IMG/VR virus record: IMGVR_UViG_3300021256_000073
Coordinates: 39,607 to 103,606 of that record
DNA length: 64,000 nt
Reading direction: 5' to 3' (one strand)
Origin: a virus
Taxonomy: Duplodnaviria > Caudoviricetes
The translations under genes were made by a program, and so were the position numbers. The notes below the pieces were generated by a model that ran no database searches, was not told the DNA's origin, and saw nothing but the letters and a program-made list of their open reading frames with translations. Numbering within the stretch: position 1 is the first letter of the stretch; the number at the start of each line of letters is the position of its first letter. Positions 4,220 to 64,000 of the stretch are shown here, piece after piece.

Positions 4220-5641
4220 ATGATTGTAGCTAATTTTGTAACAAACAGATCTACTATGTCTGAAACAAGAACCTACGAGGACTTCTATAAGTTCCTAGGT
4301 ACTCAGCCTTATAAGTTAGGCGTAGTTTCAAGACTTTACCCTGAGTTAACTGCTTCTTATCTCACAGAATCACTTAGAAACATTTTCTATCAGGATAGAA
4401 AACAAGGTAATAAGTATCAGTCAATTGACGCTATGTACTTTGAGTGGGAAGTAGAAACTAACTATATTAAGAGAGTTGAATTCGCTGCAGTTCCTGAGCA
4501 AGATGGAGCTGATGGAAGCGAAATCGTAATGGCTTTCAAAGAAAGATATTATGAGAAGTATGACATCTTCAAGATTGATGAAACAGGTCAGCAATGTTTC
4601 GTTGTAGCACGTCCAGTTCGTAAGGCTGATGATTACTGGGAAGTAACAGTTCGTCTTATTGACAATGACTATAAGTCAGTACTTGACCTTAGTGGTTGTC
4701 AGATTGGTATGACTACAAGATTCCAGTCTAACGCTATGCCTGAAATGCACGAGGAAGGTTACGTTAAGTATCAGTCTAACATTGAGAAGCATAGAAACTA
4801 CATCACAACTCACCGTGTTGATGATAGCTATTCTGCTCAGTATGGTGCTTTCGAGGACAAGTTCATTTCTATCGGTGAAGGTAAAGGTCAAGGTAATCTA
4901 ACTGAGACTATTTATAGAATGGATAAGTTAGAGAAGAACCTTCTTGACAACTTCCTATATGTAAGAAATAATGGTTTGCTTTTCAATAAGACTAACGTTG
5001 ATGTAAATGGCAAGCCAACTATTTCTGATCCAGATACAGGTCGTCCTATCTACATTGGTGATGGTATCATTCCACAGGTTGAAAGATTCGCTAGCAAGTA
5101 TGCATTCGTTAAGCTAACTATTGATGTATTCAATGTAGTTATCGCTACTTTGAATGAGAAAGCTAAGAAACCTACAGGTAACAAGTACATGTTCATCTGT
5201 AATGAAAGAATGTGGAACCTAATCCAAACTGTTCTTGGTGATTTCCTCGCTAAGTATAAGACAGAAGGAACATATATTTACAGTAAGCAAGCTAATGACT
5301 ACATTAAAGTTGGTGCTACATTTGATTCTTATGAGTATGGTGGTAACCAAATCAGCTTTAAGGTAGATAGAACATTCTCAAGAGAGTATGGATTCCAGAA
5401 AGCTTATTGCTTATGCTTAGATTTAACTGCTGATGCTACTGAGGCTGAGCCACCAATCCAGATGTTTACATTAAAGGGTGGTGACTTTATCACTAACAAA
5501 TACCTTGGTGTAGGTGGACGTAATGGACTAAGCTCTGGTGAGGTTTCAAGTCCAGTTGCTGCTTCTAAGGTTATCAACTGGGGTTACTCAGGTGTTGGTG
5601 TATTCAATCCTTACAGAAGCTTCATTCTAAGAGAAGTGTGA
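4220..5641 (+). CDS. Major capsid protein (crAss-like), 473 aa
   Basis: Size, sequence character (FEWEVETN, RNYITTHR, GDGIIPQVE), strongly biased codons, no TAG, followed by a strong hairpin, syntenic with the crAss head module. Confidence 0.88.
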   Translation: MIVANFVTNRSTMSETRTYEDFYKFLGTQPYKLGVVSRLYPELTASYLTESLRNIFYQDRKQGNKYQSIDAMYFEWEVETNYIKRVEFAAVPEQDGADGSEIVMAFKERYYEKYDIFKIDETGQQCFVVARPVRKADDYWEVTVRLIDNDYKSVLDLSGCQIGMTTRFQSNAMPEMHEEGYVKYQSNIEKHRNYITTHRVDDSYSAQYGAFEDKFISIGEGKGQGNLTETIYRMDKLEKNLLDNFLYVRNNGLLFNKTNVDVNGKPTISDPDTGRPIYIGDGIIPQVERFASKYAFVKLTIDVFNVVIATLNEKAKKPTGNKYMFICNERMWNLIQTVLGDFLAKYKTEGTYIYSKQANDYIKVGATFDSYEYGGNQISFKVDRTFSREYGFQKAYCLCLDLTADATEAEPPIQMFTLKGGDFITNKYLGVGGRNGLSSGEVSSPVAASKVINWGYSGVGVFNPYRSFILREV

Positions 5642-52400: not shown

Positions 52401-54100
52401 TAAATATGTTTAACATAGGTGATGAGACCAATGAAGCAGGTTCTCGCTAGAAGTTTATTGATGAGCAAGGAGTAGAATTCTTTGAGACTAATGTAGAAAA
52501 TATACTTCTTGAATATTTATCTAAGTCTATAGAATGTGAAAAGCTAAAAGACTTTATGATTGGTACTCGTTCTCTTCTTTTCCAACTCACTATGATGGGA
52601 GAGGAATCTGGTAATTCAGAAATAATGAAGAGAGAGATTAAATATATTAGAGACTTCCTAAAGGTTAATGTATTTAACACTACCATTAAATCCGAAACAG
52701 GTAGAGTTCTGACAGGAGCTTTAGCTGGATTAAGAAGTCAAGTAACTCTTATAAACCTTGGGGGTAACATGATATCATTTTTCCGTGATGTATTCCAGGG
52801 ATTTGAAGAAAATTTCATGAGAACAGTTACTAAATTGAATACTGACCTAGATGCTAAAACTCTTAGTTAGGCTTATGCTTATGTAGTTAGTCATGGAATT
52901 ACTGATACTATGCATATAAGTATGCTTAGTGCCCTATAGGCTAGATATCGTCTATCTAATATAGACCTTGCCAGTATGGAATCTTTACGTATTGGTAGAG
53001 GTGGTGCAGCTAACTACAAGAACTGGGCTTATGCTACTCTTCGTAGACCTGACTTCCTAAATAGAATGACCTTATTTGTTGCTCGTTGTATGAAAGATGG
53101 TTGCTGGGAAGGATGGGAACTTAAAGATAATATTCTAACATATAATTGGAAGAAAGATAAGAGATTTAAAGCCCTTGTAGATGGAACTTCTAAAGATTCC
53201 AAAGAATATAAGCAAGCTAAAGCTCTTTATATGTCTAAAGTTCGTGAATGGAATTCAGAGCATCCTGATAATCCAATCGATTTAAATCCAGAAACTGCTG
53301 AAACTTTCTTACCTGCACCTTATTCTGATAGAGAAGTCCTTGCTATTAAGGAAGTATCTGATAATATCTATGGTGCATACGATAAGTCTCTTAAATCTAT
53401 GGGAGAACATACTACTCTTATGTGGTTCTTTGGTATGTATACTACTTGGATGAATGGTATTTGGAATAACTATTTTATGAAGCCAGGTAAGTATATTGCC
53501 AATCGTTCTAATATGGAACAAAAGATAGGAGAGAATGGAAAGCCATTATTCCTAGATGAAAATGGAGGAATCACGGAGGAAGATACTGGAATGCCTTTAT
53601 ACGAGAATGTTCCAACTATAGTACAAGGTATAGCATATACACTTAGAGATTTATACTATGTTAGTAAGGATGGTGGTATACAAGCAATGAAAGACTATAT
53701 AAGTGCTAACCCAACAGTTAGAGCTAGTCTAGCTAAATTACTTAGTGATATGCTTGTAACACTATTGTTATTCTCAGTATTTAAATTTGTTTTAGACCCA
53801 GCTTATACAGACTATAAAAAGGAAATGAAAGATAATCCTGTTATAGCTAATCTAGCTACAGAGATATTCTATAAAGCAGGAGGACGCTCATATGACTCTT
53901 TTAGAGGTCCACTTAATCTTAAAGACTGGCTTGGAGATAATGTAGGTTCTCCAATGTATGAAGTAAATCTAAAAGTAATGTAGGATGCTATTAAATTTGC
54001 TACAGGTAGAAAGAGTGCTACTGATGTAATAGTTGGAAACTTTGCAGTTGCACGTACAGGTAAAGATACATATAATGCTTGGAAGAAAGCCCAAGAGTAA
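49454..54100 (+). CDS. Giant virion protein with degenerate PD-(D/E)XK-like domain, 1548 aa (TAG=Gln)
   Basis: Joins ORFs 49454, 50300, 50924, 51446, 51827, 52556 and 52976. Motif LVGHIDYLSIDDSGTLHIYNFK at 50156-50221. Ends TAA 54098-54100 before the convergent terminator. Confidence 0.8.
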
Positions 54101-54150
54101 AAAAAAAATAAGGGGAACCCGGTATTTCTACCGAGCTCCCCTATTTTTAT
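54101..54150. terminator. Bidirectional terminator between the convergent late (+) and early/middle (-) blocks
   Basis: A-tract, imperfect stem AGGGGAACCCGGTA / TACCGAGCTCCCCT, then T-tract, exactly at the strand switch. Confidence 0.85.
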
Positions 54151-54716
54151 TTGAAATCCTTTCTGATTTCCTTAACCTTATTAAAAAGGTCTTCAAGTGT
54201 ACCATTATTCTCTATTACATAGTCCCATCCTTCGTAGTCATCAAGAGCAGTTTCACTAATGTGATTACCTGCACCTGCACCTGGACGATTAATACGTATA
54301 AGAATACCTCCACGTTCTTTTACTGCTTCAGCTTCATTTGGGAATCGCACATCTGCTACAATAACTAAATCGTTATAAGTATTAAATAGTGCTTTTACCC
54401 AGAAGTCTGGATCTATTTCTTTTCTTACTGCTGTTCCTAGTTTCTGTAAGAACTCTCTCACTGTCATATTAATCCAATCAAGATGTCTCTGCTTAACCTC
54501 TTGACTATTAAAATCATCAAAAGGCATATTAAGCAAATCCTGAGATACTTGTTTTAGTAAGTCTGCATAATGAACGACAAAATGGTCATACACGAAACAT
54601 ATGTCAGAATTGTCATAAACAGACCAACTTATTCCAGGATTTGAAAGTAAGATTTGCAGCATTCTGGCTGTTGTATCTTTACCAGCTTGTGCCTTACCTG
54701 CTATTCCTATAATCAT
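54147..54716 (-). CDS. Deoxynucleoside monophosphate kinase (T4 gp1-like)
   Basis: MIIGIAGKAQAGKDT P-loop, REFLQKLGT, VIVADVRFPNE, HISETALD. Confidence 0.88.
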   Translation of the reverse strand: MIIGIAGKAQAGKDTTARMLQILLSNPGISWSVYDNSDICFVYDHFVVHYADLLKQVSQDLLNMPFDDFNSQEVKQRHLDWINMTVREFLQKLGTAVRKEIDPDFWVKALFNTYNDLVIVADVRFPNEAEAVKERGGILIRINRPGAGAGNHISETALDDYEGWDYVIENNGTLEDLFNKVKEIRKDFK

Positions 54717-55150
54717 ACGAAAATACGACTTTTAACAACATTAGCCAGAACAGCTCCATCTGCATTAGAATAGCTCTCCTTGAACATCTTAATAATCTTA
54801 CCCATGTCTTTCTTAGTTGGTCCACCATCGAAATTCTTAGCAATGATATAATCAACATGGGTTTCAATTTCTTGTACAGACATCATCTTAGGAAGAAGTT
54901 TCTTTAGCTCATTAGCATATGCTTTATACTCATTAGCTATTTCCTCTCTTCCATTGATTTGGTACATCTGTGATTGATCTGAATAATGCCCAACAAGTTT
55001 CTTTAGTACAGCAACTTCCGTATTAGAATTAATATCTTCCCCCTTAGTTTTTCTAAGGACAAGTTCCTGCTTAACCTGCTTATATGCTTCTAATTTAATT
55101 GGATTCTGCTCCTTACGAGCTTCAGTGATGAGTTCATCGATATTAATCAT
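54713..55150 (-). CDS. GatB/YqeY domain protein
   Basis: All-helical 145 aa with YQINGREEIA, LLPKMMSVQEIE, KKDMGKIIK and ADGAVLANVVK, typical of YqeY. Confidence 0.8.
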   Translation of the reverse strand: MINIDELITEARKEQNPIKLEAYKQVKQELVLRKTKGEDINSNTEVAVLKKLVGHYSDQSQMYQINGREEIANEYKAYANELKKLLPKMMSVQEIETHVDYIIAKNFDGGPTKKDMGKIIKMFKESYSNADGAVLANVVKSRIFV

Positions 55151-55787
55151 AAATATTAAACAACCATGTTACTTTCTTTTTAAGAATCTCTTTAACTTTT
55201 GGATTATAATCTATCCATTCCTGATTTGATAGCATAAAGTGGTCTGCATTTGTAATATCACTACCAAATACAAGGTCAAATACAAAGTTATCAAATAACT
55301 CTGGAATCACTACATCATGATTAAATGCCCATTTATAACTATCAATATCACATACTGGTATCCATCTTACATCGTCTACCTCACCTTCTTCTCCACCTTC
55401 AGGTTTCTTTCTATCAAGTACTTCGTCTTCAAAGATGATAGCAATATGACGTAGAGTTACATTACCATTATTTGAAGTCTCAGGATCGGTCTGAGTGTAA
55501 ACTTGTAGGAATTTTTCTGGATTTATATCATATCCAGTTTCCTCAAAAATTTCTCGTGAACAACATTGCTGAGCAGTCTCATTGGCCTCTAGGAAGCCGC
55601 ACACGGCGTTCCAACAACCTTGGTAGTCTGGTGTACCAGAACCACGAAGATTGGCTAGAACTGACCATTCTCCATTCACAACTCTAAATACAAATGCTGC
55701 TACAGCACAATAACGTCCACTCCATAGTACCTTACCTGCGTGTGGACCATCAGGAATTTTGTAACTCCAATTCTTCTCCATGTTCAT
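55143..55787 (-). CDS. Nudix hydrolase (probable ADP-ribose pyrophosphatase)
   Basis: Nudix box GFLEANETAQQCCSREIFEETG, plus downstream DP and WAFNH motifs of ADPRase/NrtR-type Nudix domains. Start may be 55781. Confidence 0.85.
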   Translation of the reverse strand: MNMEKNWSYKIPDGPHAGKVLWSGRYCAVAAFVFRVVNGEWSVLANLRGSGTPDYQGCWNAVCGFLEANETAQQCCSREIFEETGYDINPEKFLQVYTQTDPETSNNGNVTLRHIAIIFEDEVLDRKKPEGGEEGEVDDVRWIPVCDIDSYKWAFNHDVVIPELFDNFVFDLVFGSDITNADHFMLSNQEWIDYNPKVKEILKKKVTWLFNIYD

Positions 55788-56283
55788 TAAAATAATAAAA
55801 TACTTCGTCTCTTACAATCTCAGGAATAAATGCATTAAATAAAGGTGGACATTGTCTATATAAACTAGAAGATAGACTACCATTTGGTCTATCAACAACT
55901 AGTAACTCCCAATCTTTTAGAATCTGTCCACCATGCATCCAATCATTTATCTGTGGCACCAAATCTTCTCCTACAAGAAGATAGGTTTCATCATTACAAT
56001 ACTTAGTCCTAAGAGCATGTAATGTTGCATAAGAATAGAATGGAGGAAGCATTGCCTCCTCTATTCTATCCACTTCTGCTTTTCCATTAAATTGAGTACA
56101 TATTCTATCCATCCAGCTACATCTAACATCGAATGGTACTGGCTTGCTCTTTTTAGTTGGATTATGCATAGCAGGAACTACTACTACTTTATCCATACCA
56201 AATTCTACAATTCCCTCATTAATAACAGTAAGATGTCCATAATGAGGTGGATTAAATGACCCTAAATAAAAAGCTACTTTCAT
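55750..56283 (-). CDS. nadD: Nicotinate-nucleotide adenylyltransferase
   Basis: GSFNPPHYGH (HxGH), YSYATLHAL, LLVGED, W and LSSSLYR motifs. Confidence 0.88.
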   Translation of the reverse strand: MKVAFYLGSFNPPHYGHLTVINEGIVEFGMDKVVVVPAMHNPTKKSKPVPFDVRCSWMDRICTQFNGKAEVDRIEEAMLPPFYSYATLHALRTKYCNDETYLLVGEDLVPQINDWMHGGQILKDWELLVVDRPNGSLSSSLYRQCPPLFNAFIPEIVRDEVFYYFNEHGEELELQNS

Positions 56284-56417
56284 TTAATACGATAATTTAT
56301 AAAATCCTTAGATATTTATTCACCTTCTAGTGTTAGAGAGGCTACTATCTTGTTATCTCCTTCGTAATGAAGTTTAATTTTAAGATTATCTTTTAAATAC
56401 TGTTTTACTTCTTCCAT
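56280..56417 (-). pseudogene. Small ORF with apparent premature TAA (33 aa; 45 aa if read through)
   Basis: MEEVKQYLKDNLKIKLHYEGDNKIVASLTLEGE*ISKDFINYRIK*; the second stop (TGA 56280-56282) overlaps the nadD ATG. Confidence 0.4.
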
Positions 56418-56423
56418 ACTATT

Positions 56424-57251
56424 TTATTTATTAAACCAAGTTTTCATTCCATATGGAGTAATAGGTAGCTCTTCTTTATAAGAATTAACTATAACTCTAT
56501 CCTCAATACGTGTCACTAGTTCAAGACCACACTTATCAATCGCCTCTCTATATTTAAAACGATTGTCAAGGGAGTTCAAAATGAAGTCCACATCACCATA
56601 TGTAGCACCAGGAGCTATCTGGTCTAGGTCAGTACCTGATGTATTATCATCAGTTGGCTGCTGATTTATAGATTCCTGGATAGCATTGGCAGCTGCAGGT
56701 ACATAATGCTTAAGTACTTCTGCAACTTCCCATATTTCATGCTTCCACAAGTAGCTGATTCCTACATTGTAGTCACCAACATCACCATGTATAGTATAGA
56801 AACCAAGCATATGTTCAGTCATATTATCAGTATCTATAACCATACCTTTATAATTAGAAGCCAGCTGATATAGGTACATCATACGAAGGCGTGCCATGAT
56901 ATTACCATCACTGATGGTAGTAGCCTTAGATTCTTCCTCATTATCATAGAAGAATTCTCTAAAGCCCTTGTACATTCCACCTAGAAGAACTTCCGCGAAA
57001 TCATCACACAGGATTTCCCCAAGCTCATTTGCAATTACTACACGTGGAGCAGCCTGAGGTTTAATTGGAAGGCTTCTTCCAATAAATGTAACATCAGGTA
57101 TATCCTTAGTCGCAAGGTGACATATTACTGCAGATACAGTACTATCTATACCACCACTAAGCCCAAGGACTACACTCTTTAACTTGTTATGCTGTACATA
57201 ATGCTTAAGCTGTTCTACAGCATCAGTTATCCACTTGTCCCAATTTTTCAT
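56424..57251 (-). CDS. nadE: NH3-dependent NAD+ synthetase (single domain)
   Basis: LGLSGGIDS, GNIMARLRMMYLY, TDNMTEHMLGFYTIHGD, LWKHEI and PTDD motifs. Confidence 0.92.
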   Translation of the reverse strand: MKNWDKWITDAVEQLKHYVQHNKLKSVVLGLSGGIDSTVSAVICHLATKDIPDVTFIGRSLPIKPQAAPRVVIANELGEILCDDFAEVLLGGMYKGFREFFYDNEEESKATTISDGNIMARLRMMYLYQLASNYKGMVIDTDNMTEHMLGFYTIHGDVGDYNVGISYLWKHEIWEVAEVLKHYVPAAANAIQESINQQPTDDNTSGTDLDQIAPGATYGDVDFILNSLDNRFKYREAIDKCGLELVTRIEDRVIVNSYKEELPITPYGMKTWFNK

Positions 57252-57504
57252 ATTCTTCTTTTGTTAAAACGGTATTATGTAAATGTTCTAAATTAACTAA
57301 CCATCTCTTATCATTTTCATCTTTAGTAACTACCCAGCCTTCTTCTTTTCCTTCCTTAACATATATACGTTTTAGATAGGAATTAGTTGGAGGATAGTAA
57401 CAATAGATTTCCTGACCAATAGTCAGTTTTTCACGAGGTTTAGGAGGATAGAGTGTTATTGCACTCTTCTCCTCCTTAGCCTTTTTAGTTGTTTTGCGAG
57501 GCAT
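57223..57504 (-). CDS. Hypothetical protein, 93 aa (basic N-tail, small beta domain)
   Basis: Intact ORF overlapping both neighbours within the NAD cluster. Confidence 0.65.
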   Translation of the reverse strand: MPRKTTKKAKEEKSAITLYPPKPREKLTIGQEIYCYYPPTNSYLKRIYVKEGKEEGWVVTKDENDKRWLVNLEHLHNTVLTKEEYEKLGQVDN

Positions 57505-58669
57505 TTTCTAAAACAATATCCAAGATATTCTGCTGAACAGGACTACCTAAACGCTTGCCTGCATCATCTGAACGCTTAATACAATGGAGTTTTGGACTAT
57601 TCCAATTCTCTTGTACTTCAATAAGCTTCATCACCTCATTAAGAGGTATAACTCCACAGTCATTAGTAATGTTAGTACCTATACCAGCAACAACATTAAT
57701 TCTACCAGCAAAGTAATCTCTAATATCCTTAAATTTAGGGAAAGTAAGAGCATTACTCATAACAAGAGTCTTGCTAAGAGGATTGATATTCAATGACTTA
57801 TAGTGCTCAATGAACATATCTCCTAGAATTTTCTCATCACCAGAATCAATACGTGGACCATCAAACAGCTTACTATACTTACGAGAGAACTGACTTAGGA
57901 AGAACTTGGTAGTATAGGTATCAACCAATACTGTTCCCAGATCTCCGTCATAACAACGTACCCAATCTCTCATAGAAAGTTCGTTAGCCTGTTGATAGCC
58001 CCAAATTGCTCCATGAAACATAACCCACTCGTGTGGGAATGTACCACAAGGCATCATATCATAATCCAGTGCAAACTTAACATTAGAAGTGCCTACACAA
58101 GTCTTTGAGTTATCCTTAATATACTCAATAACCTTCTCGTGAATGTCAGAAGAGAAACGTCTGCGAGTACCAAACTCAGAGAATATCAGATTCTCTTGGT
58201 TAGCAAACTCAATCTTCTCTTTCAGATTCTTATACATTAGTTCCTCATTAGGCTCAATATGGTTATAGTAATAATAAGTCTCTGATACAGTGTAAAGGAT
58301 TGGAACTTCATAAAGTGTTACTTTATAAAGGTAATCAGTTACACGAATATGCAGATGGCCATATTTGTCCAACCATAGAGTAATTTTTTTTGGGTTGAAT
58401 CGGAATTGGCTGAGCCACTCCCAATATGCCCAGGGAAGGAATCGAGTGAGCCACTTGTTCTTCTGAATTTGCATCAGCTCATGAGGAGTAAGAGATGCAT
58501 AGTCAAGAGCACTAAGCTCATCCTGAAGTAACTCTAAGAAGTCTTTGTCATAGACAGTGTTATTTCTGTCTACATACTCAAATGTTCCCACTGCATTGGG
58601 ATAAAGCTTCATATATGCATATGAAGTTGTGAACTTGTACAGGTCAGTGTCTAAAATGCTTAAAATCAT
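57485..58669 (-). CDS. pncB: Nicotinate phosphoribosyltransferase
   Basis: ILDTDLYKFT, EFGTRRRFS, GTSNV, GTFPHEW (phospho-His), RIDSGD, GIGTN and KRSDDAGK motifs. Start set to ATG 58669 (ATGA overlap) rather than the track start 58681. Confidence 0.93.
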   Translation of the reverse strand: MILSILDTDLYKFTTSYAYMKLYPNAVGTFEYVDRNNTVYDKDFLELLQDELSALDYASLTPHELMQIQKNKWLTRFLPWAYWEWLSQFRFNPKKITLWLDKYGHLHIRVTDYLYKVTLYEVPILYTVSETYYYYNHIEPNEELMYKNLKEKIEFANQENLIFSEFGTRRRFSSDIHEKVIEYIKDNSKTCVGTSNVKFALDYDMMPCGTFPHEWVMFHGAIWGYQQANELSMRDWVRCYDGDLGTVLVDTYTTKFFLSQFSRKYSKLFDGPRIDSGDEKILGDMFIEHYKSLNINPLSKTLVMSNALTFPKFKDIRDYFAGRINVVAGIGTNITNDCGVIPLNEVMKLIEVQENWNSPKLHCIKRSDDAGKRLGSPVQQNILDIVLENASQNN

Positions 58670-59487
58670 AATGGTAAACAATATTTAACGCTAAATTCTT
58701 CTAAGATGTTTAATAAATCAGCAGGAAGTCTATCCATAGCCTCAGCAACGATATCATCTGGAACTCCCCAAAAGGCTCCTGCTATAGCTCCAGCCATACA
58801 AGCTTGAGTATCAGTATCACCTCTTAAGAGTATTGCTTTACGAATAGTCTCTTCATAAGAATTACTATCTAAGAAGCAACAAATAGCTTCAGGTACAGAC
58901 TCTTGACAACTTACTTTAAAAGTATATCCAGAATCCATAATGAACTTGGCAGATCGGTCTATACTATAAGAAGGGATCCTCTCATGAATTAAAGAGTAAA
59001 TAGCATCTTGATTATAATTATTAAGAGCAGCTCTAACAGCTAATGCTATAGCTTTTGCTCCTTTATAACCTTCTTTACTGTTATGAGATACAGATGCTTG
59101 AAGTTCTGCATACTTAGATACATCCTCTTCTTTTGTAAAGGCAGCACCTATAGGGCTTACTCTCATAGCGGCACCATTTCCCCAAGAGCCATAAGGCTGT
59201 GGATCATCACTATCAAGCCATGCTCCAAAGTTACTTCCATAGCCACGATTTCTATACTTTCTACCAAGCTCTTGCATACATTTAATAAGGGTAGAAGTCT
59301 CATGTTTGTCATCCTCTACTAACCACTTAGCTACTGCTATAGTCATTACAGAGTCATCAGAAAATGTAGAGTCTTCCATCCATAAAGGGAAATTAGGGCC
59401 TATAGCCACCCCATGACGAAGGAACTCATAAGGGACACCTACCATGTCCCCTATGATTGCTCCTAATACTGGATTTTTTATTACCAT
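58666..59487 (-). CDS. ADP-ribosylglycohydrolase (ARH/DraG family)
   Basis: GAIIGDMVGVPYE, FSDDS, SWGNGAAMRVSP and GDTDTQACMAGAIAGA motifs. Confidence 0.93.
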   Translation of the reverse strand: MVIKNPVLGAIIGDMVGVPYEFLRHGVAIGPNFPLWMEDSTFSDDSVMTIAVAKWLVEDDKHETSTLIKCMQELGRKYRNRGYGSNFGAWLDSDDPQPYGSWGNGAAMRVSPIGAAFTKEEDVSKYAELQASVSHNSKEGYKGAKAIALAVRAALNNYNQDAIYSLIHERIPSYSIDRSAKFIMDSGYTFKVSCQESVPEAICCFLDSNSYEETIRKAILLRGDTDTQACMAGAIAGAFWGVPDDIVAEAMDRLPADLLNILEEFSVKYCLPL

Positions 59488-60065
59488 ACTGCTTCAATAA
59501 TTGGAATATCAAGTTCTGTTGCCAGAAATCTAAAGTTATTATCATCAAGTGATGCTGTCAAATTATCAAGAATAACAGGATGCATTTCCTTTAGAGCTGC
59601 AGCAGTATTCATGACACAAATGTCACCCGCAAGACCACAAATCTGGACCTCTTCACTCTTACTAAAGATACACTGATCCTCACCTGTCAAATCATTGATA
59701 TTGTAGGCAAGATGGTCAAGGTATCTAGAAGGATTACCATTAAAGGCAGTAAATGCCTCTTTTCTCTGACCCTTCTTGTAGTTAAGCCAGAAGATATTCA
59801 TGGTTGTAATAGCCTGAACAATAGGTGCATAAATCTCAGCACCATGAGTATCAGCTACACAATGCTCGGGGAACTCACCACCAAAATGTATGAAAGAGCA
59901 ATGGTCTGGGCAATGCCAATCCTGGGTAGTTATAACCATTCCAACTTCTCCAGAAAGAATGTACTCTACTACTTTGTCCAGTGCTGCAACACCACCTTCT
60001 ACTGCAAGTTTACCACCCTCAATGAAATCATACTGAGGATCAACAATAATTAAAGTTTTTTTCAT
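59481..60065 (-). CDS. pncA: Nicotinamidase (isochorismatase family)
   Basis: LIIVDPQYDFIEGGKLAV, TQDWH..DH.SF, FPEHCV, KG and CGLAGDICV motifs (catalytic D/K/C and metal ligands). Confidence 0.9.
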   Translation of the reverse strand: MKKTLIIVDPQYDFIEGGKLAVEGGVAALDKVVEYILSGEVGMVITTQDWHCPDHCSFIHFGGEFPEHCVADTHGAEIYAPIVQAITTMNIFWLNYKKGQRKEAFTAFNGNPSRYLDHLAYNINDLTGEDQCIFSKSEEVQICGLAGDICVMNTAAALKEMHPVILDNLTASLDDNNFRFLATELDIPIIEAVW

Positions 60066-60080
60066 AAATATAATTAAAAT

Positions 60081-60227
60081 TTAAAGAGTTATTGCTATCC
60101 ATATAGCTATTACAAACATAGCTCCAAGGACAAATTCTATAAAATATTCAGCATTATCCCTTTGAATAGAATAAGCTAGTCCACATATAAAGACTAATAC
60201 AGCCATACAAGCACATAGTACGCTCAT
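60081..60227 (-). CDS. Small two-helix membrane protein, 48 aa
   Basis: [48 protein letters not shown]; ATGA-coupled to the phosphoesterase stop. Confidence 0.6.
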   Translation of the reverse strand: MSVLCACMAVLVFICGLAYSIQRDNAEYFIEFVLGAMFVIAIWIAITL

Positions 60228-60829
60228 AGTCCAAACATGTTAACGTTGTTTTCTTTTTGATACTTAATCTTTTCGATTACCTCTCTCCAACTTATTGGTG
60301 TAAAATTGTTCCAGTCTACTCCGACGTCATATTGAGATGGTTGTAGGCTCTTTTTCGCAATAGCTGCGTCCAATCCATCAAACTTATTATGGCTACTGTG
60401 AATATGACCAAAAAGCTGGATTGTATAAGGCTTGTACCCTGGGTAACACATAAAAGGATAGTGATTGAGGTACACATTATAACCTTCAATAAAAAGCCTG
60501 GCCTGCGGAACAATACTTTCAAATAGCTTCTCATAACCTTGTCTTAAATTCTTTTCATCATGATTACCTACAATAAGATGGATACGTCCATTAAGCTGCC
60601 CTAGAAGTGAATGCCATGCCGCTGAACCAGCAAAGCAAAAGTCACCAAGATGATAAACAATATCGTTTGGACCTACAGTCTTATTCCAATTGTCTATCAA
60701 AGTTTCATTCATTTCATGGACATCATTAAATGGACGACCACATAGCTTGATTATGTTTGCATGGCAAAAATGAGTATCTGAGGTAAAGAAGATATTATCT
60801 CCGCTCTGGTATTTAGTGATTATCTCCAT
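60224..60829 (-). CDS. Calcineurin-like metallophosphoesterase
   Basis: SDTHF, HLGDF, GNHD, HYP and GHIH motifs. Confidence 0.9.
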
Positions 60830-61071
60830 CCCTTGGTATGTTTTTCGTCAAGAGTATACATCGCTGTAAATCTCTTAGCATAACATTCACAATTCTTAAA
60901 CTTCTTACCTGAACCACAAGGACAAGGCTCATTACGTCCTACCTTCTTAGTTCTACGTACCCAAGGAGTATGCATCTTCATCCACATTCTACCAAAATCC
61001 TCATTCTCAAGAATTCCCTTGAAGCCCTCAAGCTTCTCTGCATTTTTATTGTTCATTTTTTCCATATGCAA
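60820..61071 (-). CDS. SEC-C motif protein
   Basis: [19 protein letters not shown], the SecA C-terminal metal-binding motif. Start codon uncertain. Confidence 0.85.
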
Positions 61072-61372
61072 AATTATAAACGGAGTGTACCCACTCCCAA
61101 AAACCTAAAGCATCATCTTTAAATACTGGGAAATCATCTCTTTTAACACAGAAATATCTATCAAGCATCTCTGCATTTTTACCTTTAACTACCTCTCTAT
61201 ATTCATTGTATTTTTGAACAAAAGAGTTTAGTATATTTATCTCATCATTAGATAAGGCTCTTGCCATATCTTGTAGGTTGATAACTAGATACTTACAGTC
61301 AATAGACTTAAAGTATTCTACCCACTTCTCACCAAGATCCGTAATCGGTAATATCTTGTCCTGCTCCATCAC
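61046..61372 (-). CDS. Hypothetical protein
   Basis: Intact ORF tiling with neighbours; start uncertain. Confidence 0.6.
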
Positions 61373-61577
61373 CTCTAATTTCTATACCGACCCCTATATG
61401 TCCAGGTGTAAAACGGTACTGATATAATCTAGCTGGATGTTCTTTCTTGAATTTTTTGGCTTGCTCCATTTCATAATCGTTAAGCCAGAATGTAGTGTTT
61501 TTATGGGGTATAATATAATTATCTCTTATATCTACCCATCTATGATTTTTCCACCATCTTTTAATCGAAGTCCACAT
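61329..61577 (-). CDS. Hypothetical protein
   Basis: Intact ORF ending YRFTPGHIGVGIEI...DITDYGSW. Confidence 0.65.
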   Translation of the reverse strand: MWTSIKRWWKNHRWVDIRDNYIIPHKNTTFWLNDYEMEQAKKFKKEHPARLYQYRFTPGHIGVGIEIRGDGAGQDITDYGSW

Positions 61578-61683
61578 CAGCTATTCCCTCTACGATATCC
61601 CCTAAAATATCTCCTACAATTTCAAACAAAGCTCCAACTTTCGTCAAAGATTTTTTAGTCTTACTCTGTAATTTTCTGAACAT
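61561..61683 (-). CDS. Possible small protein, 40 aa
   Basis: MFRKLQSKTKKSLTKVGALFEIVGDILGDIVEGIADVDFD fills the gap between two genes. Confidence 0.35.
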   Translation of the reverse strand: MFRKLQSKTKKSLTKVGALFEIVGDILGDIVEGIADVDFD

Positions 61684-61897
61684 TTGAAATAAATCGCTCG
61701 TTACGAGAAATACTCTTCTCAATATCGTCAATCTGAGTATTCAGATTGCTGATTTGATGTTTCTTCTCACTAATCTCGGAGTGCATTTCTTCATTAAGTT
61801 TCTGACACTTCTCGACAATCTTAGTGAAAGCCGACATAGACTTAGCAATACGGCGATTATAATCGCCAAAAATCAGTTTAAGAATAAATTTTAGCAT
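61661..61897 (-). CDS. Small coiled-coil protein
   Basis: Heptad pattern ISEKKHQISNLNTQIDDIEKSI. Confidence 0.65.
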   Translation of the reverse strand: MLKFILKLIFGDYNRRIAKSMSAFTKIVEKCQKLNEEMHSEISEKKHQISNLNTQIDDIEKSISRNERFISNVQKITE

Positions 61898-61906
61898 AAA
61901 TTAAAT

Positions 61907-62860
61907 TTAATTATTAATATAACCCTCATTGAGGAACATTTCATGTAGTTTATTTGCAAGATAGCGAGCATCAGGATGAGCTGCTACATCACAACGAAGT
62001 TTGAAGAATCCTTCCCACTGTTCGATAGTACCTGTCATAACAAGCTCTGTCTTAAGTGCATTTGGAAGAATTTGTCTTGCTTGCTGAGGCACTAGTTTAG
62101 TACCATCATCAAGTGTAATCATATCAAGATAGCAATCCTCAATTTTCTGAAGTGTATCAACATATTGAGCAACTGTTCTATCTTCAACTGTTAGCATATT
62201 CATAAGAATATCATCTTTATAATTCAACCACTGCTTTCTAGTCTCTCCTGTTAGAGGGTCTATAGTAGCAGCTACATTCTTTTGAATATCGTGAATCCAC
62301 TGTGGTATTATATAGGTTATCTGACTACCAAACTTAGCCTTATTATAGTTACAATATCTGGTACTTTCCTGTATAAAGCTGAATACTCTATGGCGTACAA
62401 ATTCATGGCTTACTCCTCTGTCACATGTAAATTTTACAGTTATCCTGCGTTTAAATAGATTGTTCTTAAAGTCCTCTTCAGTAGGTTCTATAATACCATC
62501 AAGTAAAGCCTTATATCCATGTTCAATAAGAACTCTATAATTAGTTGTTAAATGTATATAGTCATCTGCCTTTCTAGAGTAACCAAACCATTGATATGGA
62601 CAATCTATAAAGTTAAGATCATGATAATCTATCAAATCTTCCCAAACTTCCTTAGGGATATCTAAATAACAAGTACCATGTTCAAGAGCTGCTCCATGCC
62701 CTCTATTGGTAAGCATATCTACAAACTTCTTCGCAGAATCGTCTGTAATGTGATCTTCTGATTTGTATGCGGTTCTACCACACTTTTCTATGTGTTTATA
62801 TAGTCCATCAAGTCCTGGTTCTTGCTTGATGATTTCAACAGAGGGTTCAATAAATTTCAT
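61907..62860 (-). CDS. thyX: Flavin-dependent thymidylate synthase
   Basis: GHGAALEH, RGVSHEFVRHRVFSFIQESTRY (RHRx7S signature), ARQILP and FFKLR. Confidence 0.93.
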   Translation of the reverse strand: MKFIEPSVEIIKQEPGLDGLYKHIEKCGRTAYKSEDHITDDSAKKFVDMLTNRGHGAALEHGTCYLDIPKEVWEDLIDYHDLNFIDCPYQWFGYSRKADDYIHLTTNYRVLIEHGYKALLDGIIEPTEEDFKNNLFKRRITVKFTCDRGVSHEFVRHRVFSFIQESTRYCNYNKAKFGSQITYIIPQWIHDIQKNVAATIDPLTGETRKQWLNYKDDILMNMLTVEDRTVAQYVDTLQKIEDCYLDMITLDDGTKLVPQQARQILPNALKTELVMTGTIEQWEGFFKLRCDVAAHPDARYLANKLHEMFLNEGYINN

Positions 62861-63204
62861 TCGTAAACAGTTATAGTTTTTTCTACTGGGTGTACTTCTT
62901 GAAGTTCTTTTCCTATTATATCTTCATCATCCCAATAATAAGAGTAATCATATTCAAAGGCATAATAGTGATTATCTAATTTAAATACTATTCTCTTAGT
63001 TACATATGATTTTTCTAAGTCATAACTTATAACCTCACTTTCTACTTCTTCAAGACCATGTTCTTTCTCCCAAGCTTCTGCTTTATCTTCAAGTTCTTGC
63101 CAAGTATCTTCTTCTTTTACTTCAAATGGGTATTCATCAGGATCCATATCCCAATCACAGTCCCATTTAACTAAGCGATCATATAAAAATTGAGTAAGCT
63201 TCAC
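62857..63204 (-). CDS. Acidic hypothetical protein
   Basis: GTG start; ends EVHPVEKTITVYE; coupled to thyX. Confidence 0.65.
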   Translation of the reverse strand: MKLTQFLYDRLVKWDCDWDMDPDEYPFEVKEEDTWQELEDKAEAWEKEHGLEEVESEVISYDLEKSYVTKRIVFKLDNHYYAFEYDYSYYWDDEDIIGKELQEVHPVEKTITVYE

Positions 63205-63205
63205 T

Positions 63206-63280
63206 TTACCATCGATTGTTTGAGAACAACATATCTCCTACGAGTCCCCATATAAATACAATTAGAAGAATCTCTTTCAT
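63206..63280 (-). CDS. Possible 24-aa membrane peptide
   Basis: MKEILLIVFIWGLVGDMLFSNNRW; TAATG-coupled to the upstream ORF. Confidence 0.35.
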   Translation of the reverse strand: MKEILLIVFIWGLVGDMLFSNNRW

Positions 63281-63399
63281 TAGAATGTCTCTATATTATC
63301 TATAGTCCATCCTTCATCTGTAAGTACTTGTAAAAGCTCTGGAGAGATACCTTTCTTTACTCCATCTTCATTACTTATCTGTAAACTAATTCCTTTCAT
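63280..63399 (-). CDS. Small hypothetical protein, 39 aa
   Basis: MKGISLQISNEDGVKKGISPELLQVLTDEGWTIDNIETF; ATGA and TAATG overlaps. Confidence 0.5.
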   Translation of the reverse strand: MKGISLQISNEDGVKKGISPELLQVLTDEGWTIDNIETF

Positions 63400-63614
63400 T
63401 TCTTTTTAATCTCAAATTTAATTTGAATTGGAGCATCTTTCCATTCTAACTCTTTTATAAAGTTAGGAAGATCTTCAAATGGAAAACCCTCCATCAAAAT
63501 GGACTGGGAAGGTTGATCCTTCCACAGCCACATTTTCTTAGTACCTCTAATAGGCTTATCTTTACCCATGTAAAGACTTCCATCATAATCACGTGCTACC
63601 CACATATTTACCAA
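63396..63614 (-). CDS. Hypothetical phage protein
   Basis: MWVARDYDGSLYM...LEWKDAP, a small phage-type protein. Confidence 0.65.
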   Translation of the reverse strand: MVNMWVARDYDGSLYMGKDKPIRGTKKMWLWKDQPSQSILMEGFPFEDLPNFIKELEWKDAPIQIKFEIKKK

Positions 63615-64000
63615 GGATTATTAATTCTTCTAAAGTCTTCACCTTCAGGAACTGGGCAGTCCTTCTTCCATTCCATTGGACGGATTTTAAAGAACTTTTC
63701 TATTTTCTCCCAAGTAATATTAGCTATTTCCATCTTCTTACAAAGTAGCTCCTTAGCTTCTGGAAATAGATTCAACCATAAAGACTTTCCTCTAAAGTCA
63801 AATAAGTCGGGATACATCATATCATACCCAAGTTCTGGTGCAGACAGGACTTTCATTAAAGTAATAAACTCTTGAGCATTAGCATCTGTATGTATTGTAT
63901 AGGTTATACCATCTAAATATGGCATAATTCTATTCCAATAATCAGGCTTACACTCAGAAGTATATAAGAAGATTTTTGGAGAAGTTCCCATGTATTTATG
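63608..64000 (-). CDS. C-terminal part of a protein (5' end outside window), possibly radical-SAM-like
   Basis: Frame is open to the window edge. IFLYTS...LDGITYTIH resembles radical-SAM barrel strands, but the CxxxCxxC motif is not in the window. Confidence 0.4.
   Translation of the reverse strand, partial: HKYMGTSPKIFLYTSECKPDYWNRIMPYLDGITYTIHTDANAQEFITLMKVLSAPELGYDMMYPDLFDFRGKSLWLNLFPEAKELLCKKMEIANITWEKIEKFFKIRPMEWKKDCPVPEGEDFRRINNPW

Follow-up and report, generated by a model that had tools for sequence, protein, structure and literature searches.

A candidate cassette for deamidated NAD+ salvage at an accessory site of a distant crAss-like phage, with a plausible role against NADase defences

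The window analysed here, 64,000 nucleotides in length, is the final 64 kb of one linear 103,606-bp viral contig (IMG/VR record IMGVR_UViG_3300021256_000073). Between positions 55143 and 60065 of the window, seven minus-strand open reading frames (ORFs) fill a compact block, hereafter the cassette, which encodes four enzymes of the deamidated, or Preiss-Handler, route to nicotinamide adenine dinucleotide (NAD+), two predicted enzymes of ADP-ribose metabolism and one small protein of no assigned family. In the direction of transcription, these are:

59481..60065, minus strand: PncA-like nicotinamidase of the isochorismatase/nicotinamidase family, 194 aa (PF00857; NF008623, E = 5e-13)
58666..59487, minus strand: ARH3-like ADP-ribosylglycohydrolase (ARH), 273 aa (PF03747, ADP_ribosyl_GH, E = 4e-41; phrog_6572)
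57485..58669, minus strand: PncB, nicotinate phosphoribosyltransferase (NAPRTase), 394 aa (TIGR01514, 337 bits at a cut-off of 270; PF04095 and PF17767)
57223..57504, minus strand: conserved hypothetical protein, 93 aa, with a basic N-terminal tail and a predicted small β-barrel; no family
56424..57251, minus strand: NadE, single-domain NH3-dependent NAD+ synthetase, 275 aa (PF02540, E = 2e-35; TIGR00552, 112 bits at a cut-off of 64)
55750..56283, minus strand: NadD, nicotinate mononucleotide (NaMN) adenylyltransferase, 177 aa (TIGR00482, 99 bits; HxGH and SxxxxR motifs)
55143..55787, minus strand: Nudix hydrolase, 214 aa (PF00293, E = 5e-17; complete Nudix box)

All seven frames had been reported in an initial annotation of this DNA, and both the gene content and the clustering, together with the intact catalytic motifs, are confirmed here. 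Its coordinates stand for every ORF with the exception of the start of PncB, which is more likely ATG 58669 than TTG 58681 (398 aa), because the ATG forms an ATGA overlap with the ARH stop codon and the resulting protein matches the N-termini of its relatives. Adjacent genes overlap by 4-38 nt, except for nadE and nadD, which lie 140 nt apart; a 33-codon ORF occupies this gap, and the only other apparent intergenic gap, upstream of pncA, also holds a small ORF (60081-60227). With PncB, NadE and NadD encoded within 3 kb on one strand and phage genes on either side, the arrangement is that of a phage Preiss-Handler cluster. A search of Rfam over 53500-64000 for riboswitches or other RNAs in the gaps gave nothing meaningful, a sigma-70 promoter scan stayed below shuffled expectation (the sigma-70 model being uninformative for Bacteroidales), and a nucleotide search of the region against a phage collection returned two short matches only.

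Matches in Pfam, NCBIfam and the PDB bear out the enzyme assignments of the initial annotation, and with them the four steps from nicotinamide through nicotinate, NaMN and nicotinate adenine dinucleotide (NaAD) to NAD+. A PDB sequence search gives nicotinamidases (3r2j, 1ilw and 3pl1) as the best solved relatives of PncA, and comparison by eye with PncA of M. tuberculosis identifies D9, K98 and C150, which we take to be the catalytic triad, and D49, H51, H55 and H68, presumably the metal site; in a set of 31 phage homologues, at least 90% retain each of these residues. PncB, the sole NAPRTase-family gene of the contig, lies above the cut-off of the TIGR01514 NAPRTase equivalog and is thus of the PncB rather than the Nampt type. 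NadE finds the NH3-dependent enzymes 1xng, 3p52 and 2e18 among its PDB matches and keeps the SGGxDS loop in 24 phage homologues, while the best PDB match of NadD is the NaMN adenylyltransferase of B. subtilis (1kam), NadR models reach it at an E-value of 1e-5 only, and its GxFxPxHxGH motif and S139..R143 are kept in 20 homologues. Signature residues are thereby conserved in sets of 20-31 phage homologues that share just 25-55% overall identity. In one human-gut relative (L069:8001-9764), PncB and NadE lie in a single 588-aa open frame, so that steps 2 and 4 are either fused in nature or joined by a fault of the assembly.

The Nudix box (GX5EX7REUXEEXGU) of the last enzyme is complete and conserved. 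Its AlphaFold2 model (predicted local distance difference test, pLDDT, of 89.7) has as top Foldseek matches 3gz8, 2fml, 2qjt and 2r5w, ahead of NudC; 3gz8 is the Nudix domain of NrtR with ADP-ribose, and 2qjt and 2r5w are NadM-Nudix ADP-ribose pyrophosphatases. The intact box and the nearest fold together place the protein in the ADP-ribose pyrophosphatase subgroup, and we regard it as probably an ADP-ribose pyrophosphatase, the type already proposed for it in the initial annotation. A role as an NrtR-like regulator was also considered and is unlikely, the Nudix box being intact and the C-terminal helical extension being confined to the nearest clade.

The other two proteins of the block are of narrower distribution. 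The best PDB matches of the ARH are ARH3 (2qty and 2foz) and MJ1187; among the relatives, only the nearest (loci L004 and L008-L011) have it between PncA and PncB, and it is absent in L012. The pncA-pncB slot is variable: it holds the ARH in the source clade and unrelated proteins of 137-143 aa elsewhere (a 137-aa ORF at L005:1173-1586, and L006:7567-7998), and a Pfam search with the proteins that take the place of the ARH in relatives gave no match. The ARH is therefore a clade-specific accessory outside the conserved core. The 93-aa protein, which has no match in Pfam, NCBIfam or PHROG, is confined to the nearest clade, with virus-only Atlas clusters; its low-confidence AlphaFold2 model (pLDDT 65) suggests a disordered basic N-terminus followed by a small Tudor/SH3-like barrel, with weak matches to such domains (E about 2e-3).

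To survey the cassette across phages, IMG/VR was searched with a PncB alignment, which yielded 80 viral loci at 45-80% PncB identity and, with six loci from other sources, a set of 86; an alignment was required as the query, a scan of IMG/VR with the single PncB protein returning nothing. About 65 of the 80 PncB-seeded contigs carry a five-gene core, PncA-PncB-NadE-NadD-Nudix, in identical order, and this order reaches down to 45% PncB identity. Within the 86 loci, PncA is present in 79, NadE in 77, Nudix in 72 and NadD in 68, on the same strand and mostly in the same order. The usual backbone consists of ThyX, a SEC-C protein and a metallophosphoesterase on one side of the cassette and YqeY and a deoxynucleoside monophosphate (dNMP) kinase on the other; the ARH and the 93-aa protein are found within the cassette only in the nearest clade, and further-off relatives also have genes for a second metallophosphoesterase, an AAA ATPase and radical-SAM proteins inserted. 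The co-occurrence that the initial annotation had put forward as a check on its proposal thus holds for the five-gene core, which is clustered and not scattered, and fails for the ARH.

In the window, the genes that border the site or belong to its backbone are:

61907..62860, minus strand: ThyX, flavin-dependent thymidylate synthase, in the same TAG-free block (PF02511, E = 6e-33)
60224..60829, minus strand: metallophosphoesterase, upstream border of the cassette site (PF00149; phrog_547, E = 2e-53)
54713..55150, minus strand: YqeY-like protein, downstream border of the cassette site (PF09424, E = 4e-16)
54147..54716, minus strand: dNMP kinase, final gene of the minus-strand block (PF21448; phrog_139, E = 1e-49)

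A second survey, seeded on the flanking ThyX, covered 72 related loci with at least 9 kb of downstream sequence, and recovered 14 loci with four or five cassette genes and 54 with none. In several of the cassette-less loci, the distance between the phosphoesterase and YqeY is just 0.9-1.4 kb. Empty sites are seen at L216, L195, L199, L204 and L191, and remnant sites at L177, L183, L181 and L173, the backbone of ThyX, phosphoesterase and YqeY being retained; the remnants in these four loci comprise PncA with the C-terminal 110 residues of PncB, an N-terminal part of PncA with Nudix, NadD with Nudix, and a 75-residue fragment of PncA. On the ThyX tree, the presence and absence of the cassette require at least 5-6 changes, a rough count, as this is a single-gene FastTree phylogeny with long branches. 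The cassette therefore behaves as a gain-and-loss accessory module of patchy distribution at a fixed site between the metallophosphoesterase and YqeY, a pattern that is typical of conditionally useful genes. This fixed-site insertion, with its empty and eroded states, is new in this analysis, as is the proximity of the Nudix model to the ADP-ribose-binding NrtR and NadM domains.

The 80 closest cellular PncB genes all belong to Bacteroidales, at 50-56% identity, and in these loci PncB stands alone or beside PncA, with NadE, NadD and Nudix never adjacent. As the NAD genes are scattered in the closest bacterial loci, the cassette is a phage assembly and not a copied host operon. The PncB tree shows about five changes between phage and bacterial labels, the two being intermixed, and the PncB clade of the source phage groups with rumen Bacteroidales metagenome-assembled genomes (MAGs) from goat, yak, buffalo and roe deer, which points to a ruminant-gut member of the Bacteroidales as the host. 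The 'bacterial' PncB loci nearest to the phage clade are two Alloprevotella MAG contigs of 223 and 118 kb (L088 and L089) with co-oriented PncA and PncB; their length is that of jumbo phages, and they may be phage DNA that was binned into MAGs. The identity of the phage PncB to that of Bacteroidales, and the mixing of the two on the tree, would also be expected if these were passenger genes recently taken from a host, or a misassembled bacterial fragment, without function in the phage. We consider this very improbable: many samples have yielded dozens of independent viral contigs with the identical order between flanking phage genes, the catalytic residues persist at overall identities of 25-55%, the closest bacterial loci have no such operon, and the genes follow the TAG-free pattern of the phage's presumed early block.

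This pattern is a matter of genetic code. On the plus strand, positions 1-54100 contain long open frames only when TAG is read as glutamine; they include proteins of 2958 and 3332 aa and carry 16.6 in-frame TAG per 1000 codons. From 54147 to the end of the window every gene is on the minus strand, and TAG is absent, whether as sense codon or as stop, from 19 minus-strand ORFs (54147-63991, 3197 codons; delimited under translation table 11, the long ones keeping the same ends with TAG as glutamine), in agreement with the TAG-free genes described in the initial annotation. The enzyme ORFs on this strand have the lengths expected for their families. The cassette is part of this standard-code block of replication and nucleotide-metabolism genes, and its overlapping genes, being presumably coupled in translation, would be made together and ahead of the late genes in which TAG is recoded. 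Although the 103.6-kb fragment uses TAG heavily for glutamine, it contains no tRNA gene and so no TAG suppressor; a suppressor tRNA may be encoded in the portion of the genome that the contig lacks.

As to the phage itself, a 473-aa protein at 4220-5641 is about 21% identical to Crassvirales major head proteins, and it is on this identity that the crAss-like link depends; PHROG searches with the presumed structural proteins of the contig gave no match. CheckV estimates the contig to be ~57% complete, and the nearest relatives (PncB 77-82% identical) are contigs of 141-194 kb, for which reasons we take the full genome to be ~185 kb and the contig to be a fragment. By its sequence, the source phage is a large, distant crAss-like, TAG-recoded phage that falls short of the >200 kb that define 'jumbo' phages, a convention on size and not on function.

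The activities that we infer for the cassette enzymes would form a connected route. PncA would convert nicotinamide to nicotinate and NH3, PncB would combine nicotinate with phosphoribosyl pyrophosphate (PRPP), and ATP, to NaMN, NadD would adenylate NaMN to NaAD, and the NH3-dependent NadE would use NH3 and ATP to turn NaAD into NAD+. The Nudix enzyme would most likely, the small margins of its fold ranking notwithstanding, split free ADP-ribose into AMP and ribose-5-phosphate, which a host PRPP synthetase could return to PncB as PRPP, and in the source clade the ARH3-like hydrolase may release ADP-ribose from O-linked conjugates. As the initial annotation had noted, no PRPP synthetase is seen: a search for PRPP-synthetase-like genes (Pribosyltran_N) found none in either the contig or MT835470.1, a relative of 117 kb, so that PRPP must come from the host, with the proviso that the contig is a fragment and that a PRPP synthetase, or Adps, could be encoded outside it. 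The deamidated intermediates may also, as the initial annotation had suggested, escape NADases. In sum, the infected cell would retain a supply of NAD+ while NAD+ is being broken down, and the most likely selective pressure for this would be NAD-depleting defences of the TIR and SIR2 types. We thus favour, at a probability of roughly 0.55, the reading of the cassette as an accessory NAD+ salvage and regeneration module of a distant crAss-like phage, with NADase defences as its likeliest selective pressure.

Several points weigh against this reading. The NadD score of 99 bits is slightly under the curated TIGR00482 cut-off of 112, and the fold margins of the Nudix protein over NudC-type enzymes are small, its substrate being deduced from the fold ranking. 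Counted by stoichiometry, each NAD+ made by the route consumes several ATP, and the PRPP synthetase of the host is needed as well; against a fast NADase, such a route may therefore lack the speed or be too expensive. Many related phages are without the cassette. The literature searched holds no enzyme, expression or infection data on the deamidated route in any phage, and a plain metabolic role would account just as well for the position of the cassette amid ordinary nucleotide-metabolism genes (ThyX, dNMP kinase).

Such a role would be that of an auxiliary metabolic module supplying NAD(P) for the replication burst, for example for ThyX-dependent synthesis of deoxythymidine monophosphate or for redox reactions, or sustaining NAD turnover in a nutrient-limited rumen host, with no particular part for immunity. 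Its block-mates, joined in the relative L004 by an upstream DNA polymerase, suit this explanation, and the compared passages of Li et al. (2024; PMC11662467) and of a freshwater jumbophage study treat the NAD genes of phages chiefly as boosters of metabolism. We nonetheless hold it to be rather unlikely. PncB, and often PncA as well, belongs to the repertoire of the host lineage already, and NadD and NadE are near-universal in bacteria; therefore, the phage duplicates host functions rather than complementing them. The presence and absence of the cassette at one hotspot, with eroded remnants, look more like conditionally useful genes of an arms race, and the ADP-ribose-type Nudix (with the ARH in the source clade) suggests a concern with NAD+ breakdown products, not simple biosynthesis. 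An NAD-dependent ligase was considered as a reason for the cassette and rejected, there being no LigA domain in the contig and the ligase of MT835470.1 being ATP-dependent.

The same ADP-ribose enzymes raise the further possibility that the breakdown products themselves are the target. Nicotinamide is a product inhibitor of sirtuins and ADP-ribosyltransferases; PncA could serve to clear it, and Nudix and ARH to destroy ADP-ribose or immune signals derived from it or to reverse ADP-ribosylation carried out by host toxins, the resynthesis of NAD+ being secondary. An ARH3-like enzyme and an ADP-ribose-type Nudix do share the operon, there are partial variants with only PncA and Nudix or only NadD and Nudix, and the abstract of a recent report (10.64898/2026.05.28.727677) describes phage enzymes that degrade ADP-ribose-based Thoeris signals and feed NAD+ synthesis. 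We judge this explanation improbable, since the core of PncB, NadD and NadE, with conserved catalytic residues, makes sense only for synthesis, most cassette-bearing relatives have no ARH, and the partial variants have truncated genes that look like deletion remnants.

The preferred reading, resynthesis of NAD+ under attack by NADases, places the cassette beside three pathways, NARP1, NARP2 and NARP3, for which it has been demonstrated experimentally that phage NAD+ resynthesis defeats NADase defences. The initial annotation had cited the first two, both experimentally established; a third validated pathway, NARP3, has to be added. None of the three uses PncA, PncB or NadE, all of which are present here. 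NARP2 (Nampt and a bifunctional Nmnat/Nudix; NadV/NatV of Vibrio phage KVP40; Lee et al., 2017; Osterman et al., 2024) likewise leads from nicotinamide and PRPP to NAD+, in two amidated steps via nicotinamide mononucleotide, whereas the cassette would take four steps via nicotinate, NaMN and NaAD and needs NadE; the adenylyltransferase and the ADP-ribose-type Nudix, fused in NARP2, are adjacent overlapping genes in the cassette. Membership of NARP2 is contradicted by the gene content, with PncB as the sole NAPRTase-family gene and an adenylyltransferase of the NadD type in place of Nampt and an NMN adenylyltransferase. NARP1 (Adps and Namat, with an extension by the Macro-domain phosphatase Adpp) has the same proposed purpose and also uses the ADP-ribose moiety, but re-joins ADP-ribose pyrophosphate (ADPR-PP) with nicotinamide directly, where the cassette would break ADP-ribose to ribose-5-phosphate and AMP; the contig contains neither a PRPS-like Adps nor a Namat-type enzyme. 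NARP3 (PnuC and NadR; Sci Adv 2026, PMC13464706) is another phage-encoded module that restores NAD+, and it defeats Sir2-HerA; it imports nicotinamide riboside and uses NadR, a chemistry unlike that of the cassette, and the contig has no match to PnuC (PF04973). Searches for Nampt, Adps and PnuC were negative in MT835470.1 as well as in the contig. The same four enzyme families make up the Preiss-Handler salvage of Bacteroidales, where the genes of the closest loci are scattered, in contrast to the phage, where they are packed together with the Nudix gene.

The closest precedent comes from Li et al. (2024, Microbiome; PMC11662467), who described Preiss-Handler clusters of the type pncB-nadD-nadE in Bacteroidota jumbo phages from the gut. 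The passages compared give as examples of such 'NAD-jumbo phages' Kuafu_71 (pncB-nadD-nadE) and Kuafu_19, mention phage pncA, and explicitly propose counter-defence against NAD+ depletion, at the stage of a hypothesis. The initial annotation's presentation of the locus as a candidate new system is thereby not upheld, both the clusters and the counter-defence idea having appeared in these passages in 2024; the counter-defence reading of the cassette is plausible and not new. As described there, those phages resemble the source phage in coming uncultured from gut or rumen, in having hosts predicted among the Bacteroidota and in their clustered deamidated route, and differ in size, all exceeding 200 kb, from the estimated 185 kb of this distant crAss-like, TAG-recoded phage. 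The conserved PncA and ADP-ribose-type Nudix, the clade-specific ARH3-like gene and the defined hotspot of the source cassette are in none of the passages compared. The one route described in a 2022 survey of viral NAD+-ADPr systems is salvage by NadV, NadM and NadR, and our literature search found no paper that ties crAss-like phages to pncB and no 'NARP4'.

As both the gene set and the hypothesis are already published, what the window contributes is lineage and detail and not a new idea: a crAss-like lineage, the context of a TAG-free, presumably early block, the states of the hotspot, an ADP-ribose-type Nudix as part of the core, and the ARH3-like gene of one clade. In bacterial immunity, the depletion of NAD+ is a central theme, the three proven phage rebuilding routes all proceed via amidated intermediates, and a working deamidated route would, if real, be a fourth. 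We put forward, tentatively and as the bolder version of the argument, that the cassette represents this fourth phage pathway of NAD+ reconstitution, distinct in its chemistry, in the form of a mobile module of five enzymes (PncA, PncB, NadD, NadE and the ADP-ribose Nudix) that would recycle both products of TIR and SIR2 NADases via deamidated intermediates, sits in a presumably early standard-code block, and may come and go at a fixed hotspot, possibly in step with the defences that the Bacteroidales host carries. It would concern the abundant crAss-like phages of gut and rumen Bacteroidales, whose counter-defence is almost uncharted, and the full, empty and eroded states of the hotspot offer natural controls.

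Two further features of the window lie at the borders of the site and of the block:

60081..60227, minus strand: 48-codon ORF between the phosphoesterase and pncA, encoding a small hydrophobic two-helix protein
54111..54142, minus strand: intrinsic-terminator-like hairpin at the end of the minus-strand block, with a 14-bp stem (8 GC pairs) followed by a T run

The 48-codon ORF shares an ATGA overlap with the stop codon of the phosphoesterase, and ORFs of 43-46 aa are found at the same place in relatives. The phosphoesterase is present in 65 of the 86 related loci, cassette-less relatives included, and in distant relatives a second, different metallophosphoesterase directly precedes pncA (L017:6519-7214 and L001:6199-6903). 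For a calcineurin-like metallophosphoesterase, action in ADP-ribose or nucleotide breakdown is possible; its identification as an Adpp-like ADPR-1''-phosphate phosphatase was rejected, Adpp being a Macro-domain protein. The hairpin is a strong one and falls within the 46-nt convergent junction between the last TAG-recoded gene of the plus strand, ending at 54100, and the minus-strand block, ending at 54147, and probably acts as a two-way terminator. In an 82%-related phage (L004:1-2804), the family-A DNA polymerase upstream in the block is interrupted by a LAGLIDADG homing-endonuclease gene.

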